A stretch of 64,000 bases of DNA. It comes from Candidatus Binatia bacterium. Its GTDB lineage: Bacteria > Desulfobacterota > Binatia > UBA9968. The stretch spans positions 6,167 to 70,166 of the forward strand of contig DASYRN010000041.1 of NCBI GenBank assembly GCA_036004365.1, given 5' to 3'. This document shows positions 12,714 through 20,346 of the stretch, one piece after another. The translations under genes and the position numbers were made by a program. The notes below the pieces were generated by a model. That model had not been told where the DNA came from. It ran no database searches and saw only the letters and a list, made by a program, of their open reading frames with translations. Position 1 is the stretch's first letter, and every line of letters starts with the position of its first letter.

Positions 12714-13061
12714 ATGTCGAAGGAAGAACTGGAATTTTTTGCCATCGAGGTCAAGCCCTGGCGCGATGTGCCTGGCAGTCGGTGCGCTGGTCTTCGGGAG
12801 CGCATCTTGACTGGAGATCCGGAGTCCGGGAACTATACTAGAATTCTAAAATTTGAACCGGGTTGCGATACGACCCCTAACGGAATCGTAACGCACGATT
12901 TCTGGGAGGAGGTTTACATCTTGGAAGGAAGCATTATCGATTTGAGGCTTAATAAAGAGTTTAGCGCGGGACAATATGCTTGCCGTCCTCCCGGAATGAC
13001 CCATGGCCCCTGGAGATCGCCGAGAGGGTGTACGACTTTTGAGGTTCGGTACACGAAGTAG
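12714..13061 (+). CDS. Single-domain cupin protein
   Basis: 115 aa. The THDFWEEVYILEG...GMTHGP spacing is typical of the cupin barrel. AAGGAGG RBS upstream. Confidence 0.7.
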   Translation: MSKEELEFFAIEVKPWRDVPGSRCAGLRERILTGDPESGNYTRILKFEPGCDTTPNGIVTHDFWEEVYILEGSIIDLRLNKEFSAGQYACRPPGMTHGPWRSPRGCTTFEVRYTK

Positions 13062-13355
13062 TGCAGCCGAGATTTCATCAAGCTGTTTTCGGTCTCAGCA
13101 GGATCTCTGCAAGACCTGTAAGATCCGTTTACATCTCGCAGGTGGTCTTACTTCTTTTGTGAAATGAACAGGATAGGTCAAATAAGGCGATTTTTGAGCG
13201 AAGCGTGTAAGATAGCCTGACAGTTTTCTGATCGTTATCCTCTCATCACGTTCTGCCACAAGATTCCGTTTTACGCCTTTACGCTCCGCCAATGACCGCA
13301 AACTCGGAATTCTTATAGGTCGGCACAAGCTTTGCTGCTCCAAACTTAACCTTCG

Positions 13356-13574
13356 ATGACGGACTCAACAAATCGGGATAGCGCGGATCTTCTTTGTCAG
13401 CGTTGTGATAGTCAGCCGCTTTTTTTTAGAGTGCGAAGCGAGATCATCGATATTAAGGTATGTGTTGAGTGCGGAGTAAAGGCCGCAACTCTGGGATTGA
13501 TCGTGACCGAGCTCTCCAAGGAGAAGGGAAGTGCTTCTGCTCTTTCGTCCGAGAATGACAAAGAATCAGCATAA
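13356..13574 (+). CDS. Zinc-ribbon mini-protein (CxxC-N18-CxxC), paralogue A
   Basis: 72 aa. LCQRC...FFRVRSEI.D..VCVECG...LGLIVT.LS is shared with the inverted ORF 14573-14839. Most nucleotide differences between the two are synonymous. Confidence 0.6.
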   Translation: MTDSTNRDSADLLCQRCDSQPLFFRVRSEIIDIKVCVECGVKAATLGLIVTELSKEKGSASALSSENDKESA

Positions 13575-13669
13575 TCATTTTCTATCCCTCTTACATTCGT
13601 AATTCTACTCTTGCATTGGTCACCGTTGTGTCATGACGGTCCTGGACCCGTACGAAGTCTGTGATTCGG

Positions 13670-13696
13670 TTGACATGGGAGCTGTCATTCGATAAT
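13670..13696 (+). promoter_or_regulatory. Candidate sigma-70 promoter (TTGACA-N15-GATAAT) for the bicupin gene
   Basis: Perfect -35 at 13670-13675 and a 5/6 -10 at 13691-13696. The spacer is short. It lies 40 nt upstream of ATG 13738. Confidence 0.35.
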
Positions 13697-13737
13697 TTCC
13701 ATCTCGACCTAATCGGAGCGTACTAATCGAGGAATTC

Positions 13738-14670
13738 ATGGAAAATTTCTACGAGAACTGGTTGGCCGAGTCGCAGCGTATTGAGAAGGCTGTTGCTGAG
13801 GGGCGCAGAGTGGTCCGCGGAAAGGAACTCAGCTGGGTGCGGACGCGCCAGGACCACAAAGCGGCACTTATGATCGCGCCCGAGATGGGATTTCCCACTG
13901 GCGGGAGTCTCCTCATGAAGGCCGAGATACCGACGGGCTGGCATACCGGTAAGCATTTGCATGGAGAAGAGGCAATCTATATTGAGCAGGGGGAAGGATG
14001 TTTGGTCTTAGACGATAAACGCTATGACTTTCGCCGCGGCACGATCTTTCATTTTCCCTACCGCTCCCCACATCAGCTTTTTAATACCGGCAAGGAGACA
14101 GTTGTCTATGTTTCCGGTTTGGCATGGCCGCTTGAAGCGGCCGTGCGCATGGGCCGGATGGAGCAGATCGAGGACGCGGGAGAAAATAGCCCTGCTTCGC
14201 TCGCGCACCTGGCATTCGAAGAGTCGCAATACTGGCCCATTGATGGGCGGCGGATTTCAATGCACGAAGGTCAGTTTGAGCTGTCGAGCGAAACCAAACA
14301 CGGCGCGACCTACTTTCTAATGGGGAGGAGTGGGAAGCAGAACGGGTTTAGAGCGACAGCAGTCGCGATCAGCTCGATCTTTGTCGATCTGCCGCGCTCC
14401 AAGAGCCACAGCCATGCACACCCCGAGGCCTATCTTTATGCGTTGGAAGGAAGCGGTTACTCGGAGATCGGCGGGAAAAAATACGAATGGGAGCAAGGTG
14501 ATGCCGTCCATGTTCCGCCAGGCATGATGCACCACCAGCACTTCAATCCCAACGATCGGATCATGAAAGAACTCAGGTTCGAATATGGGATTCGCTACTG
14601 GTTGGCCGATCAGTGGCGGGGCTATACGACCGTTGACCGGCATTTGAAAGCGACCCATTTGGATGAATAG
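13738..14670 (+). CDS. Bicupin protein (two cupin barrels; dioxygenase/isomerase-like)
   Basis: 310 aa with two metal-site-like motifs: HTGKHLHGEEAIYIEQGEG and HSHAHPEAYLYALEGSG...HVPPGMMHHQHFN. Confidence 0.8.
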   Translation: MENFYENWLAESQRIEKAVAEGRRVVRGKELSWVRTRQDHKAALMIAPEMGFPTGGSLLMKAEIPTGWHTGKHLHGEEAIYIEQGEGCLVLDDKRYDFRRGTIFHFPYRSPHQLFNTGKETVVYVSGLAWPLEAAVRMGRMEQIEDAGENSPASLAHLAFEESQYWPIDGRRISMHEGQFELSSETKHGATYFLMGRSGKQNGFRATAVAISSIFVDLPRSKSHSHAHPEAYLYALEGSGYSEIGGKKYEWEQGDAVHVPPGMMHHQHFNPNDRIMKELRFEYGIRYWLADQWRGYTTVDRHLKATHLDE

Positions 14671-14839
14671 GAGAGGCGGAGAGCTGAGTCACAATCAATC
14701 CCAAACTCACGGCCTCCAGGCCACATTCGACACACACGCTGACGTCGAGGATTTCGCTTCGAACACGGAAGAATATCGCATTGCTGTAGCAGCGGGCGCA
14801 GAGATTATGTCCATTGGTTTGTTTTCGTAAACCATTCAT
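14573..14839 (-). CDS. Zinc-ribbon mini-protein (CxxC-N18-CxxC), paralogue B
   Basis: 88 aa with a strong AAGGAG RBS 6 nt before ATG 14839. The conserved core is shared with 13356-13574. The 3' 98 nt overlap the bicupin gene convergently. Confidence 0.65.
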   Translation of the reverse strand: MNGLRKQTNGHNLCARCYSNAIFFRVRSEILDVSVCVECGLEAVSLGLIVTQLSASPIHPNGSLSNAGQRSYSPATDRPTSSESHIRT

Positions 14840-14952
14840 ACTTTGCTCCTTGGTTTTGGTCGGGCCGACTAGAATTCGTCATCCCGTTTTCTTCAAGTCT
14901 AAATAATCCCGTTTATTCGATTGGACCACAGTTTCGTCGCTCTCGTCTGCAA

Positions 14953-15153
14953 TCAATCCTCGGCCATTTCGGTTTTACGCCATCGGGGTTTGGTCTCCAT
15001 CTCGGGAAAAAGCTCACAAACTTCGATGACCGAGATGTCGTTGTGGGAAAAGCCCCCAGTCCTAAGTGAGCTTACGATAGCCTCCACTTGAGATTCAGAT
15101 TCGGCAACGCAAACGACAGCCTTTGACACATCCTCTCCTTTATACATGAGCAT
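14953..15153 (-). CDS. Hypothetical small protein
   Basis: ORF with internal Met start MLMYKGEDVSKAVVCVAESESQVEAIVSSLRTGGF. No clear RBS. Confidence 0.3.
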   Translation of the reverse strand: MLMYKGEDVSKAVVCVAESESQVEAIVSSLRTGGFSHNDISVIEVCELFPEMETKPRWRKTEMAED

Positions 15154-15328
15154 TTTTGTGAATCGACCGGTCAGCTTTATTTTCAAGTCTCACTTCGACT
15201 CCGGGAACTCGCGATTCCAGGACATCGGGACCCCCGTCTCGGGCGTCGACTCGTGGGGGCCTCTCTCGAGAGCATGCCGGAACCAATAAGCCAACACAAA
15301 ATGCGACCATGAGTAACTTCCGTTTCAT
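15140..15328 (-). CDS. Possible small lipoprotein
   Basis: MKRKLLMVAFCVGLLVPAC has a lipobox-like signal. Weak RBS. Part of a longer ORF-track entry (15140-15469). Confidence 0.3.
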   Translation of the reverse strand: MKRKLLMVAFCVGLLVPACSRERPPRVDARDGGPDVLESRVPGVEVRLENKADRSIHKNAHV

Positions 15329-15627
15329 CGTCCTGTTCGCAAACGGGATACCAAAAAGAATGGAGCATTTCGTACCGGTACAAGACAGTGTGTGCAGGAG
15401 TTTTCCTGCAGAAAAACTAAAAAGCAGCCCAAAAAACCATACAGCTTTCAGGCGGCATACCACCCTCATTCATAGCGAAAGAACCACCCGAACCAACGTC
15501 CCCCCGATCACAACGGAAGCGAATATTAAAATGAACCACATGGCGAGATCATTAATAATAGGTGGACTTCCCTCTATGGGAATCTTTCTTTTCATCATTT
15601 TCCCCAGACTCCTCACAATGCCGTGCT

Positions 15628-16059
15628 TCAAAGGTTAGGTCTCGGTCTCTCCCCAGTTCTGTTGATCCAAATATGTGTCCTAACAATGTGATTTCTCTGC
15701 TTATTCTTAATTCTCGGACTCAGACGGATGGCAGGGTGTTGCGCCCTTTCCTCTTCCTTCCACCGCCGCACTTGCTGGCGAATGTGTTCGGAACTTAACC
15801 CCAATACATCACAGATGTTTTCAAACGAGAACAACCGATCGTCGTCTGTGTCCAGCAGCCAATCCTCCACCTCGAGGAAGCGACAGTTCTCTTTAGGGAG
15901 GTATTTTTTGTAAGTCCAGATGGCGTCTTCCAAGACAGCAAGCATGAGCCTTTTTTCAGGCTCCAGGCGGTCCCTTCTACTCACGGTTTCCCAATACTGG
16001 ATTGGAAGCAAGACGTCCGGGTGAATGGGTTGAAACAAGCGGCCTATTTTGTCTTCCAT
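15628..16059 (-). CDS. Hypothetical protein (143 aa)
   Basis: GGAGGG RBS before ATG 16059 and protein-like composition. No recognised family. Confidence 0.5.
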   Translation of the reverse strand: MEDKIGRLFQPIHPDVLLPIQYWETVSRRDRLEPEKRLMLAVLEDAIWTYKKYLPKENCRFLEVEDWLLDTDDDRLFSFENICDVLGLSSEHIRQQVRRWKEEERAQHPAIRLSPRIKNKQRNHIVRTHIWINRTGERPRPNL

Positions 16060-16206
16060 CGGTTATCCCTCCGGATAATTCGTGTATTTTGAATTCACTG
16101 CAGCGTAAAACACGACGCAATTCCGATGCCACTCCACGGCGGTCGACGAACAGAATGCGAGTCGATTAGCGAGGCCGGTTAAAGGACCGGTCCCATAGGT
16201 CGCAGC

Positions 16207-16725
16207 TTAAGGTTGTGAAGAGGAGCGAAAGGAACCGTGTACTGCTCGAGCTAGCTTCTTTATTAACGGAAGGAAGGATTGCTTGACTGTGCCGAGGAGG
16301 TGTTGGGCGGTCCGATATTCCGGTCGGTGTGTAGACTCCACACCGACCGGCTGGCGTAGTTCGAGAGCTTTCTTGACTGCCAACTTAAGCTCTTCGTTAT
16401 AGACAGGTTTGATAAGGTAATCACTGGCGCCATTCTTAATCGCGGTGGCACCCAAACCACCCCGTCCAAAGGCAGTAAGCATGATAAACCGCAGAGCCGG
16501 GTTCACCGCTTTCGCTTCCTTTAATAGGTCCAGCCCGTTCATTCCGGACATATTTAAATCGGAGATGACGAGATCGAACCATTGATTTTTCAATTGACTT
16601 AAAGCCACCTCAGCGGAAGTGGCGCACTCCACCTCATAGCCCTCTTTTTGGAGGATTCTCTTGAAGAGAGGAAGTAGGTTTTCCTCGTCGTCAACTATAA
16701 GGATACGGTTATGCGGCGCTTCCAT
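16207..16725 (-). CDS. Response regulator, receiver domain plus a roughly 45-aa tail
   Basis: ILIVDDEE..., DLVISDLNMSGMNG and IKP are the acidic pocket, phospho-Asp and Lys of CheY-like receivers. The start overlaps the upstream kinase stop by 17 nt. Confidence 0.85.
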   Translation of the reverse strand: MEAPHNRILIVDDEENLLPLFKRILQKEGYEVECATSAEVALSQLKNQWFDLVISDLNMSGMNGLDLLKEAKAVNPALRFIMLTAFGRGGLGATAIKNGASDYLIKPVYNEELKLAVKKALELRQPVGVESTHRPEYRTAQHLLGTVKQSFLPLIKKLARAVHGSFRSSSQP

Positions 16726-18751
16726 AGTCCGTTGTCTTGATCAACGGGAAGTGAAGATAAAAGGTCGTGCCACTCCCGCAGGTGCTCTCTACTTTGATTT
16801 CGCCACCATGGGCCTTGATGATGCGCTCGCAAATGGACAAGCCGAGGCCCATACCTTTCTTTTTCTTCGTGGTGAAGAAAGGGCGAAAGATATTGGCCAT
16901 GGCCTCCGGTTCAATCCCTATCCCAGTGTCAGACACGGCAATCATCAGCTTTTCTTCCGTAGCTTGGTCGGGAAAGAGCGCGGTCGCGCGGACAGTCAAT
17001 GTCCCTCCTCCCGGCATCGCCTCCGCCGCGTTAAAAAAGAGATTGATCAATACCTGTACCAACTGGTTACCGTCTGCGGAAATCAAGGGCAGGTTGGGTT
17101 GGATGTCCATCGTGACCTTGATTTGTGAATTTACCAAATGGCCCATCACAACTTGAATGCTGTTGCGGATAATGGTTTCAATATCCAGCAACGCCAGGTC
17201 GGCGTTAGCGGGACGGGCGAAATCCAAGAGATTTTGAATGATCTCGCTGCAACGGAGGGTTTCTTTCTCGACGATCGTTAAGGCCTGATGGTCAGGGTGA
17301 GAAGGTTTCATCTCGCTAAGAAAGTCCTGAATGTAGCCGAGAATGATCTGCAGTGGGTTGTTGAATTCATGGGCGATAGAGGCGGCAAGCTCGCCCATAG
17401 AAACCAACCGGTCCGACGCGATGAGCTGCTGTTCGAGTTCTTTGGCAAGGCTGCTTAGTTGAGCCTCGCGGTCCCGCAACTTCTCCTCTACTTGTCTGCG
17501 CTCAGCGATCTCGGCCTTGAGCGCCTGGTTCACGGCGCCCAGCTGGGAGGTGCGCTCTCGCACGCGTTCCTCTAGCTCCAGGTGGCTCTTTTCAAGCTCG
17601 ATCGCCTGTCTTTTGAGCTGCTCGTAGAGCCGGGAGTTGTGAATGGCGATGGCCGCTTGAGCTGCCAGGGAAGAAAGGAACTCGATCTCTTCCACGCTGA
17701 ATTCGTGTTCCTCCTTGGCGTACAAACACAAGATCCCTATGACCTCTTCCTTAATGATTAACGGAACGGCGAGATACGAGACCAAACTGTTCCTGCTGTA
17801 CAACTCAGGTCGCCTCACGGAGCGCGGATCTGTTTGAACATCGCGGACTACCAGCGGAGCTTTAGTTCGGATCACCTCCTCAGCCCGAGGACCAGGTGAG
17901 TGCCGTCCGTACCCCTTCCAATCCGTCTGCTCAATATTTCGACAGAGTAAATACTCCAGCTCCCTGGTTTCCCGGTCCAATAACCTGACCGTAGTTGCGG
18001 TCGAATAAGAGATAAAATGTTCGAGTTTTTCTAGCAGGAGGCCCAACACCGTCTGCAGATCTAAACTTGACGTAATCGCAACGTTGATATCCCGCAGCGC
18101 GCTGATGCGTTCGAGATTACTTTTACTTTGCTTTTCGGCCTTCTTATGCTCGGTGATATCGCGCAGCAGCCAGCGCAGCCCGGCGTAGCCTTGGCCGTCG
18201 AACATTCGAGATACGCTAAGGGCGGCGGGAAAAGATCTAACTTTTTCACGCGGGTTTAACGGGAACCACCACTCGCCATCCATGTCCTCTTTAACCAGAC
18301 GGTTTAGCAGTTGAAAAAAATTGGTGTGACTCTCTTCCATGAGGAAGGTGACCATGGGTTTGCCTACAAGATAGTCTTGACGGCAATTGAGCATGGTCGC
18401 CGCGACCTTGTTGGCTTCCCTGATATTTCCGGACGGATCGGTTATCAGATAGCCAGCCGGGGCGAATTCGAAAAGTTCGAGATATCTTTGTCGCTGGGCT
18501 TCGACTTCCTGCCGAGAAGTGGTTACTTGGTCCACAGATGCGCGCAACTCTTCCAGAGCGATGGAAAGTTCCGCTAGTGCCTCGTCAACTAAGGGTTGGG
18601 GTAAGGGTGACATCGCGCTACGCACATAAAGGTCTGCCAGGCGATTACGCGCCGCTTCCACTTCGCTAGCGAGCTTGTTTTCTTTTATATCGGCTTTCAT
18701 CTCCGTTTCTTTTCCTTCATGAAGATCGCTCTGAGGTGATTTCTTTTTCAT
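16709..18751 (-). CDS. Cytoplasmic sensor histidine kinase: coiled coil, PAS, GAF, HisKA, HATPase_c
   Basis: 680 aa. PAS-like FEFAPAGYLITDPSGNIREAN, GAF-like region, H-box SIAHEFNNPL, and N/G boxes NLFFNAAEA, DTGIGI, GMGLGLSI. Confidence 0.9.
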   Translation of the reverse strand: MKKKSPQSDLHEGKETEMKADIKENKLASEVEAARNRLADLYVRSAMSPLPQPLVDEALAELSIALEELRASVDQVTTSRQEVEAQRQRYLELFEFAPAGYLITDPSGNIREANKVAATMLNCRQDYLVGKPMVTFLMEESHTNFFQLLNRLVKEDMDGEWWFPLNPREKVRSFPAALSVSRMFDGQGYAGLRWLLRDITEHKKAEKQSKSNLERISALRDINVAITSSLDLQTVLGLLLEKLEHFISYSTATTVRLLDRETRELEYLLCRNIEQTDWKGYGRHSPGPRAEEVIRTKAPLVVRDVQTDPRSVRRPELYSRNSLVSYLAVPLIIKEEVIGILCLYAKEEHEFSVEEIEFLSSLAAQAAIAIHNSRLYEQLKRQAIELEKSHLELEERVRERTSQLGAVNQALKAEIAERRQVEEKLRDREAQLSSLAKELEQQLIASDRLVSMGELAASIAHEFNNPLQIILGYIQDFLSEMKPSHPDHQALTIVEKETLRCSEIIQNLLDFARPANADLALLDIETIIRNSIQVVMGHLVNSQIKVTMDIQPNLPLISADGNQLVQVLINLFFNAAEAMPGGGTLTVRATALFPDQATEEKLMIAVSDTGIGIEPEAMANIFRPFFTTKKKKGMGLGLSICERIIKAHGGEIKVESTCGSGTTFYLHFPLIKTTDYGSAA

Positions 18752-19627: not shown

Positions 19628-19879
19628 CTACGCCGACCGGCCTGCTACGGCGCGATAGAGGAAAAGCAAGATAATCGATCCCGCTACGGCCATCAGAAAA
19701 CTGACGGGATCGCCCTCGCCATACATCCCAAGTGCACGCCCAACAAAGCCGCCAACCAACGCCCCGGCAATACCAAGTAGGATCGTGATGATAAAGCCGC
19801 CCGGATCACGCCCCGGCATAAGGAGTTTTCCGACGATGCCGACAATCAGACCAAAGAAGATCCAACCTATAATACTCAT
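19628..19879 (-). CDS. GlsB/YeaQ/YmgE-family (transglycosylase-associated) small membrane stress protein
   Basis: 83 aa. GWIFFGLIVGIVGKLLMPGRDPGGFIITILLGIAGALVGGF is typical of the family. Confidence 0.85.
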   Translation of the reverse strand: MSIIGWIFFGLIVGIVGKLLMPGRDPGGFIITILLGIAGALVGGFVGRALGMYGEGDPVSFLMAVAGSIILLFLYRAVAGRSA

Positions 19880-20346
19880 AAAATCCCCCTCCTTGTTTTA
19901 TTGTTAGAAGTTAAGTTCGCCTTCGAATCTCGATGGCTTAAACTAAAGGGTTCTTTATCTAACCCGTGCGTCGTGTCCTGTCATCTGCTGCTCCTGGTTT
20001 AAAGGTCTGAGTGTTCGGTTCGTCAGTCGAAGGCCGCGGCGGACTCGCATTTTCCCGACGTTCGCGTACCGCCTCCCGCATGGCCCGATTCTTCTTGCTT
20101 TTGTTTCGGCCATCTTTTTTCTTGCGCTGCCTTTTATTCGGCATGTTTGTATCAACCAGGCAAAAGCAGTGCCAATAAAGTTAGATCTGGTAAGTGCGTT
20201 AATTTTAATTTGATTCTTCAGAACGTCGCGTTGAGACAAATTTTATTGGAGGAATTTTCCGACAGAGAATAACAGAGCGGAGAAGGAAGTGGCCGATTGC
20301 TCGGGAAGCCCACCAGAGGCTCAATCACCAAGGCAGGAAACCACCC

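Follow-up and report, generated by a model that had tools for sequence, protein, structure and literature searches.

Two small predicted zinc-finger proteins bracketing a bicupin gene in a Candidatus Binatia genome, and their association with sigma-54 promoters

Single-finger zinc micro-proteins are already known, and the described proteins closest to those considered here are the N-terminal zinc finger of McsA, the activator of the arginine kinase McsB, and VdcD/ShdD, small zinc subunits of UbiD-type decarboxylases. The zinc fingers of McsA mediate the binding of partner proteins (PMC7235348). The present analysis concerns two mini-protein genes, copy A and copy B, that bracket a bicupin gene in a 64,000-nucleotide stretch of DNA (the window) from a Candidatus Binatia bacterium (GenBank assembly GCA_036004365.1, contig DASYRN010000041.1, positions 6,167 to 70,166 of the forward strand). 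The source genome, G000, is a soil metagenome-assembled genome (MAG) of 4.27 Mb with a GC content of 54.5% and a completeness of 96%. An earlier reading of the letters alone, referred to below as the original prediction, had described the two genes as inverted paralogs coding for zinc-ribbon proteins of no recognized family. The family is indeed unannotated, with no Pfam or NCBIfam model reaching threshold.

13356..13574, + strand: copy A, open reading frame (ORF) of a 72-aa mini-protein, with the core of the Cys4 finger at residues 13-54 (13392-13517) and a variable, hydrophilic tail
14573..14839, - strand: copy B, an 88-aa mini-protein; core at 14678-14803, AAGGAG ribosome-binding site at 14847-14852

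As in the N-terminal finger of McsA (8wtb_B), the mini-proteins start with M-x-C-Q-x-C, continue into a beta-hairpin with a hydrophobic-polar pattern and enter a helix with h-C-x-x-C-A-x-E. In a profile search of solved structures this finger was the closest match (E = 3.6e-4 over 33 residues). Nevertheless, the mini-proteins are not McsA, since NF053706 gave no match for copy A or copy B and the family member P0016 scored 13.3 bits against a cut-off of 210. McsA has about 185 aa, with two fingers and a C-terminal McsB-activating part, whereas the mini-proteins have one finger and a disordered tail; they lack a McsB/CtsR context and belong to a different phylum-level lineage. The second match was the ShdD/VdcD subunit (7ae7; also 7ae4), a stand-alone protein of about 60 aa that starts with MKCxRC, carries a second CxxC about 20 residues on and is encoded beside an enzyme gene. 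In this case the profile reached only E = 0.023, the neighbors in the window (cupins, hemerythrin, DUF2848, kinase and receiver) include no UbiD or UbiX gene, and adjacency to the enzyme is not conserved. Both matches are a resemblance and not membership.

HVO_0758-type micro-proteins and generic zinc ribbons (Zn_ribbon_8/FmdB, TFIIB ribbon) likewise consist of a single Cys4 finger in 55-75 aa, but the RVxS(D/E)xxDxKVC and LGLxV motifs are specific to the mini-protein family, whose scores fall far under the thresholds of those models. A functional analogy, and only that, can be drawn with ZAS factors such as RsrA, in which a small cytoplasmic zinc-thiolate protein is paired with a helical protein of the helix-turn-helix (HTH) kind; oxidative-stress genes also lie near several members of the mini-protein family. 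Unlike ZAS factors, however, the mini-proteins have no HxxxCxxC motif and no similarity of sequence or fold to them, and F143, the HTH-like protein described below, is not a sigma factor.

The cores of copies A and B align without gaps over residues 13-54, with 29 of 42 positions identical and 36 similar (BLASTP, E = 4e-22), close to the 27 of 43 counted by eye in the original prediction. At the DNA level, this similarity takes the form of a 101-nt inverted repeat (13417-13517 against 14678-14778) that is 71% complementary. Across the 42 core codons the differences number 12, 4 and 26 at the first, second and third codon positions, respectively, an excess at third positions with a binomial P of 1.4e-4; pN is 0.18 and pS is 0.83 (saturated). 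For comparison, orthologs were taken from L010, a Logan contig from another genome, and from L004, which goes with G001, a genome of the same genus as G000 (GenBank VBLN01, 'Deltaproteobacteria bacterium DP_36'). The dN/dS ratio was 0.05-0.10 in every pair of window copies and L010/L004 orthologs with an estimable dS, and 0.05 for copy A against its L010 ortholog. The similarity thus reflects strong purifying selection on two protein genes, as the original prediction had argued from the third-position differences, and the ratio that it had proposed to calculate lies far from that of a neutral repeat. Judged by these codon patterns, copies A and B are real, translated and selectively maintained paralogs.

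The AAGGAG of copy B sits 7 nt ahead of the ATG, confirming the strong ribosome-binding site noted earlier. A 156-nt contig from a soil 'RNA-Seq' run (X25), 98% identical, spans 14680-14835, which is exactly the conserved core of copy B; nothing else in 13000-16200 was covered by this run. A scan of the region from 11 to 21 kb against Rfam found no RNA family.

Searches with the core, as had also been proposed, did find homologs. Neither copy has a Pfam match at E < 0.1, and only eight close relatives were found among 5.8 billion proteins. A profile built from these eight led to 112 clusters at 50% identity, and a second-generation profile (A2, 53 sequences) retrieved 523 proteins, all of them 'hypothetical' or bearing arbitrary automatic names. 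In copies A and B the domain has about 42 residues, with the pattern CxxC-x18-CxxC, and precedes the variable hydrophilic tail. The family signature is (M)xC-x-R-C, 8-13 residues, (F/Y)RVxS(D/E)xxDxKVCxxC(A/G)xxAxxLG(L/I)xVxxL and then a hydrophilic variable tail of 5-40 residues. Among 53 diverse members, R16, C17, C36, C39 and A43 are invariant, and C14, V26, V35 and G47 are present in at least 90%. When the relatives were compared with the zinc-ribbon families of Pfam and NCBIfam (Zn_ribbon_8/FmdB, Zn_ribbon_TFIIB, HVO_0758, Trm112p), the best scores were 13-18 bits against cut-offs of 22-70.

For the mini-protein domain the prediction is a Cys4 zinc finger of the treble-clef type, composed of a hairpin, a zinc knuckle, a helix and a strand. 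The AF2 model has a pLDDT of 91-94 over residues 20-50 (core above 90) and shows strands at 24-27 and 32-35, C36 and C39 right before a helix at 37-45, and a further strand at 49-52. In this model the first CxxC lies on a beta-hairpin knuckle and the second at the N-terminus of the helix, the arrangement of a treble clef. A Foldseek search of the model against the PDB returned nothing significant; the top matches (RING, ZZ, B-box and ArfGAP) are treble-clef relatives.

The family is lineage-restricted, being found in this bacterial order only. It was present in 23 of 41 related genomes, at up to 13 copies per genome, and in none of 150 genomes sampled from other parts of the phylum; within the order, one genus lacks it in all 11 of its genomes. 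G000 has two copies in all, A and B. A search for related loci with a narrow alignment returned only the same-genus MAG VBLN01000234. Orthologs of copy A are P0001 (96% identical) and L010 5488-5709(-). In L010, both copies bracket the orthologous bicupin gene in the same orientations as in the window. In G001/L004 there is only a B-type copy, and a gene for an MFS transporter occupies the A position. The B-type copies of the three genomes (window, L010 3854-4078, L004 6001-6225) form one clade with support of 90/94 and the A-types fall outside it, which places the duplication before the divergence of these genomes. Copies A and B accordingly represent an ancient duplication, as judged from the tree, with both copies kept in at least two genomes. 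The 'cassette-like duplication' considered in the original prediction is retained in this sense; as a recent or recombining repeat it is not, given the saturated synonymous sites and the B-type clade spanning three genomes.

The region upstream of copy A carries a set of promoter elements.

13321..13336, + strand: CGGCACAAGCTTTGCT, a sigma-54 -24/-12 element; the ATG of copy A follows 20 nt further on
13206..13222, no strand assigned: TGTAAGATAGCCTGACA, the proximal of two 17-nt dyads, at a distance of 115 nt upstream from the sigma-54 element
13117..13133, no strand assigned: TGTAAGATCCGTTTACA, the distal of the two dyads (17 nt), at a distance of 204 nt upstream from the sigma-54 element; putatively an enhancer-binding site

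The element CGGCACAAGCTTTGCT matches the sigma-54 consensus TGGCAC-N5-TTGCW at 10 of 11 positions and is one of two exact GGCAC-N5-TTGC sites in the window. In a soil strain variant only spacer base 13327 is altered, and L010 has CGGCACGGGCTTTGCT at the corresponding place, with a diverged spacer and the GG and GC kept. The gene rpoN is present in G000 (C170:29341-29817). The two dyads are the only ones of their kind in the window, and L010 carries the same pair. Among the 723 sigma-54-like sites of the whole genome, only three are accompanied by dyads at -204 and -115, and the three regions align over about 230 nt. This cassette of about 230 bp occurs in G000 at window positions 13100-13340, on C170 (-) at about 17411 and on C225 (+) at about 9004. 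Its targets are copy A, a 459-aa activator of the NtrC family (on C170), and an ATPase-like protein of the XrtA/PEP-CTERM-associated kind that carries a LysM domain (TIGR03015, 298.8 bits; cut-off 324.5).

A promoter of similar layout has been described. According to Haft et al. (2006; PMC1569441), PEP-CTERM genes are preceded by a 17-nt motif that ends in TTTACA and is sometimes repeated, followed by a spacer and a sigma-54 site; the element is ascribed there to the activator PrsR, with a spacer range of 32-92 nt and an occurrence in Proteobacteria only. Compared with that description of the motif, TGTAAGATCCGTTTACA has 17 nt ending in TTTACA, and the second copy (13206-13222) ends in CTGACA. 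The cassette thus resembles the PEP-CTERM box as given there in having a repeated 17-nt motif upstream of a sigma-54 site. A PrsR ortholog is encoded in G000 (on C146; 512.2 bits against a curated cut-off of 502.6), and one of the three G000 cassettes precedes the XrtA/PEP-CTERM-associated ATPase-like gene. In contrast to the genes of that description, copy A codes for a cytoplasmic mini-protein and not a PEP-CTERM protein. As a separate observation, the same dyad and sigma-54 element precede a gene for a 290-aa protein with a PEP-CTERM-type C-terminus in another genome (L083, G018:C1, 885-1914), directly upstream of the G018 bicupin ortholog.

The words GAATTCT and TCGGC, which the original prediction had placed upstream of both copies, are present (GAATTCT at 13307-13313 and TCGGC at 13320-13324; reverse complement at 14877-14863), but the gap between the two words is 6 nt at copy A and 2 nt at copy B, and the copy-B orthologs in L004 and L010 are without them. 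The TCGGC of copy A is the beginning of the sigma-54 -24 element. The shared words therefore carry meaning only in part. No sigma-54 element is present directly before copy B, where only these words occur, without the GC at -12.

At sigma-54 promoters, transcription usually begins some 12 nt past the GC. This would give copy A a leader of only about 10 nt, with no Shine-Dalgarno sequence. No terminator was predicted between copy A and the bicupin gene or between the convergent genes, so read-through from copy A into the bicupin gene is plausible.

Sigma-54 elements recur across the mini-protein family. An element was found in the 260 nt ahead of the first Cys codon for 16 of 51 members, eight-fold more than the 2.0 expected (P = 7e-11); eight of these members, against 0.64 expected, had a match of at least 10/11. 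The elements stand at stereotyped distances of about 40 or about 75 nt. Dyads occur with A-type copies only and before none of the other sigma-54-positive members, which implies other activators for the remaining members. In one sub-family, with the pattern M..C.HCG...YRVTSE..G..LLD..VC (L068, L069, L073-L076 and L067; G024, G012, G002 and G004), TGGCAT-N5-TTGC(T/C) lies about 40 nt before the first Cys codon; this fixed distance points to near-leaderless sigma-54 transcripts in that sub-family.

Clustering of the genes next to the 51 members identified two recurrent same-strand neighbors, namely response regulators or sigma-54 activators at 11 loci and a small HTH-like protein, here called F143, at eight loci, six of them independent.

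15628..16059, - strand: F143, 143 aa, all-helical and HTH-like; an unannotated family and a recurrent same-strand neighbor of mini-proteins

With about 10 F143 genes per genome, 0.38 independent loci with F143 on the same strand within 1.5 kb would be expected against the six observed (P = 2e-6). The gene order is either F143 followed by the mini-protein, abutting or overlapping, or mini-protein, one gene and F143. Proteins of this family have about 125-180 aa and share the core LEPEKxLMLAVLEDA...W(L/I)FSFENICExLG...YxRxGLxxWK. More than 6125 members are found in databases, with homologs labeled Deltaproteobacteria or Candidatus Binatia. Genomes of this bacterial family contain 7-13 copies each, and those of a sister genus without mini-proteins a single one; G000 has eight besides that of the window, for example at C20:10512-10883 and C113:8832-9287. 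Searches of Pfam, NCBIfam and the PDB with F143 found no match. The structural model of F143 consists of helices throughout, with a confident prediction over residues 31-110, and a Foldseek search of it against the PDB gave nothing significant, only resemblance to sigma region 4 (E > 1) and to homeodomain HTH folds.

Genes for SOD and DJ-1/PfpI also lie near mini-proteins in unrelated loci. Separately, in two unrelated contigs from metagenomes (L012 5001-6772; L015 4419-5812), the immediate neighbor of a mini-protein gene is a catalase gene, and in one of them a gene for a Fur-family regulator comes next.

Copy B closes a string of genes on its own strand that runs from a kinase through a receiver, F143, a 42-aa membrane peptide, a lipoprotein ORF and a YflT-like gene to copy B itself.

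16709..18751, - strand: PAS/GAF histidine kinase, heading the same-strand array
16207..16725, - strand: response regulator with a receiver domain only, the AAA+ sigma-54 activator part having been lost
16116..16131, - strand: sigma-54 element TGGCATCGGAATTGCG, ahead of F143; the L010 homolog is TGGCACCGGAATTGCG at 2169
15470..15598, - strand: single-transmembrane micro-protein of 42 aa (MMKRKIPIEGSPPIINDLAMWFILIFASVVIGGTLVRVVLSL); homologs at the same position at L004 5229-5345 and L010 2700-2828
15338..15353, - strand: weak sigma-54-like element TGGTATCCCGTTTGCG (a match of 8/11), which precedes the lipoprotein ORF, the YflT-like gene and copy B
14953..15132, - strand: YflT-like small protein of 59 aa with a GTG start and a AAAGGAGAGG ribosome-binding site, just upstream of copy B

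In L004 and L010, copy B is preceded by homologs of the YflT-like gene, with 75 aa and 263 aa, respectively; the 263-aa protein matches PF11181 YflT (E = 1.3e-8) as well as DUF1269. Positional homologs of TGGTATCCCGTTTGCG that match the consensus better precede the YflT-like gene in both contigs (TGGTATTGCGTTTGCT at L004 5485 and TGGTATTGCCTTTGCT at L010 2975). The receiver remnant is 69% identical to residues 1-125 of a 409-aa NtrC-type ortholog in L010, and nothing aligns further. As that ortholog is intact, the AAA+ module has been deleted in G000, although the nearby sigma-54 promoters remain. Between the weak element and the YflT-like gene, an ORF of about 61 aa with a lipoprotein-type signal (MKRKLLMVAFCVGLLVPAC...) was seen at 15140-15325 (-); it does not occur in L004 or L010. 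Farther upstream, a sigma-54 element (TGGCACTGCTTTTGCC, 20159-20174, - strand) precedes a Transgly_assoc (GlsB/YeaQ/YmgE) stress gene at 19631-19879 (-) (PF04226, E = 3e-14).

The gene between the two copies was also compared across genomes.

13738..14670, + strand: bicupin gene, 310 aa, two Cupin_2 domains (Pfam E = 1.5e-24)
14573..14670, no strand assigned: 98-nt overlap of the C-terminal extension of copy B with the 3' end of the bicupin gene; the extension is lineage-specific

Its identification as a bicupin in the original prediction was correct; in NCBIfam only sub-threshold matches, to ring-cleaving dioxygenases, were found. The antisense overlap of the last 98 nt of copy B was likewise as reported. 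The overlapping tail of 34 residues is peculiar to the lineage of the window. The orthologs P0010, P0007 and P0005 end about 20 residues past the core, and copy B stops 31 nt (L010) or 76 nt (L004) short of the bicupin stop. Bicupin orthologs, 71-84% identical and in single copy, occur in 35 of the 41 relatives. A mini-protein gene adjoins them only in G000 and G001 and in L010, and 14 genomes have the bicupin without any mini-protein.

Taken together, these observations suggest, with about even credence on our part, that the mini-proteins act as small regulatory or adaptor modules that bind proteins within stress and envelope programs under sigma-54 control, with F143 as the likeliest partner and the zinc-thiolate site as a possible redox switch. 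Copy A would be transcribed from a sigma-54 promoter of the PrsR/PEP-CTERM-box type with a very short leader lacking a Shine-Dalgarno sequence, and its transcript would probably be read through into the bicupin gene. Copy B would be co-transcribed with the YflT-like stress gene. The mini-proteins may then bind partner proteins within these programs, most likely the HTH-like F143, and the Zn(Cys)4 site may provide a scaffold for these interactions and possibly also a switch operated by thiol oxidation, by analogy with the McsA fingers or the ZAS anti-sigma factors.

Several points weigh against this reading. Zinc binding by the four cysteines, the partner and the redox role, and with them the function as a whole, are inferred. 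The similarity to McsA is limited to 33 residues, and the cysteines account for most of it. Only about 12% of mini-protein members adjoin an F143 gene, and the neighborhoods are heterogeneous, with 111 Pfam families among 133 neighbors. The activator adjacent to the copy-B string is truncated in G000, and part of the local circuit may be decaying. The lone RNA contig has a depth of 2 and could come from DNA. Moreover, a spacer of 98 nt (13223-13320) separates the proximal dyad from the sigma-54 element, outside the 32-92 nt given by Haft et al., with the same geometry in all three cassettes, and no EpsH/exosortase was found in the 96% complete G000. The copy A promoter is called PEP-CTERM-box-like on account of this spacer and the missing exosortase.

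A more specific form of the proposal, which is rather unlikely, is that the mini-proteins and F143 make up an undescribed two-part device, in which a sigma-54-induced Zn(Cys)4 micro-protein binds a small DNA-binding protein and perhaps releases it in a redox-dependent way. It is similarly doubtful, though worth keeping in view, that the finger itself contacts DNA, RNA or RNA polymerase, as a TFIIB-type ribbon or a DksA/TraR-type protein, and tunes sigma-54 transcription without F143. The enrichment of sigma-54 promoters before family members would suit such a direct binder, and so would the JGI label 'Zn ribbon nucleic-acid-binding protein' on two members, the sub-threshold Pfam matches to TFIIB-type ribbons (E = 0.002-0.004) and that to the Rpb9 ribbon in the PDB (E = 0.12). 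Nevertheless, all of these matches are below the family thresholds, the labels are automatic at source, and the core, acidic to neutral, conserves few basic residues beyond R16 and R25. The original prediction had offered, among other options, a tie to the bicupin, with the mini-protein as a metallochaperone or redox partner, and an accessory subunit like VdcD/ShdD would be a related case. The bracketing kept in the window and L010, the copy B kept in G001 and the weak profile match to ShdD agree with this, but a bicupin that is widespread without an adjoining mini-protein strongly disfavors it. In a survey of 2 kb on either side of the bicupin in 10 other genomes, none of the 10 had a mini-protein, Cupin_7, DUF2848, hemerythrin or F143 gene, and no cupin was among the 25 commonest Pfam families of the 133 mini-protein neighbors (44 other loci). 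A role as bicupin accessory is thus improbable, and we take the position of the mini-proteins around the bicupin gene to be a genus-level accident of gene order rather than a sign of shared biochemistry. Among the options that had been offered for the arrangement, a regulator survives, as an inferred role.

The high copy numbers of both families, and the F143 and mini-protein genes that abut or overlap in L039 and L056, might also be explained by a toxin-antitoxin, defense or mobile-element module composed of F143 and the zinc-ribbon protein. PADLOC and PHROGs searches gave nothing above threshold for mini-proteins or F143, however, no integrase or transposase is prominent among the neighbors, the locus is syntenic across genomes, and most F143 genes have no mini-protein nearby, as most mini-proteins have no F143; such a module is very improbable. 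Scarcely more can be said for ribosomal peptide precursors, for which the conserved domain of this multi-copy family would be an N-terminal 'leader' and the highly variable tail the C-terminal product. The tails are hydrophilic and of low complexity, without a cleavage motif, the supposed 'leader' has the predicted fold of a zinc finger, and no maturase, radical-SAM or peptidase-transporter family recurs among the neighbors, which makes this reading slighter still. A neutral inverted DNA repeat or a non-coding regulatory element would account for the 101-nt repeat, but retains practically no credence. The low dN/dS with saturated synonymous sites, the hundreds of protein homologs and the empty Rfam scan oppose it, and an identity of 71% is too diverged for recombination; as a neutral inverted repeat it was refuted by the substitution pattern.

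No description of the mini-protein family, its sigma-54 control, its expansion or its pairing with F143 was found in the libraries and literature searched. Small proteins are routinely missed in annotation, and copies A and B are the tip of two sizeable unnamed families (at least 523 mini-proteins and more than 6000 F143 proteins), both concentrated in an uncultured soil order. The interpretation of the mini-proteins as regulatory modules replaces a guilt-by-association reading, that of a cupin helper, with a testable regulatory one. It would also extend the sigma-54 promoter of the PEP-CTERM-box type, as set out by Haft et al., to a genome with a 'Deltaproteobacteria'-labeled congener and to a target gene that is not a PEP-CTERM gene. 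If the two-part device proved true, it would provide feedback or stress gating on sigma-54 and PEP-CTERM-type regulons, and its expansion would have reached a dozen copies per genome, many of them expressed from near-leaderless sigma-54 transcripts.

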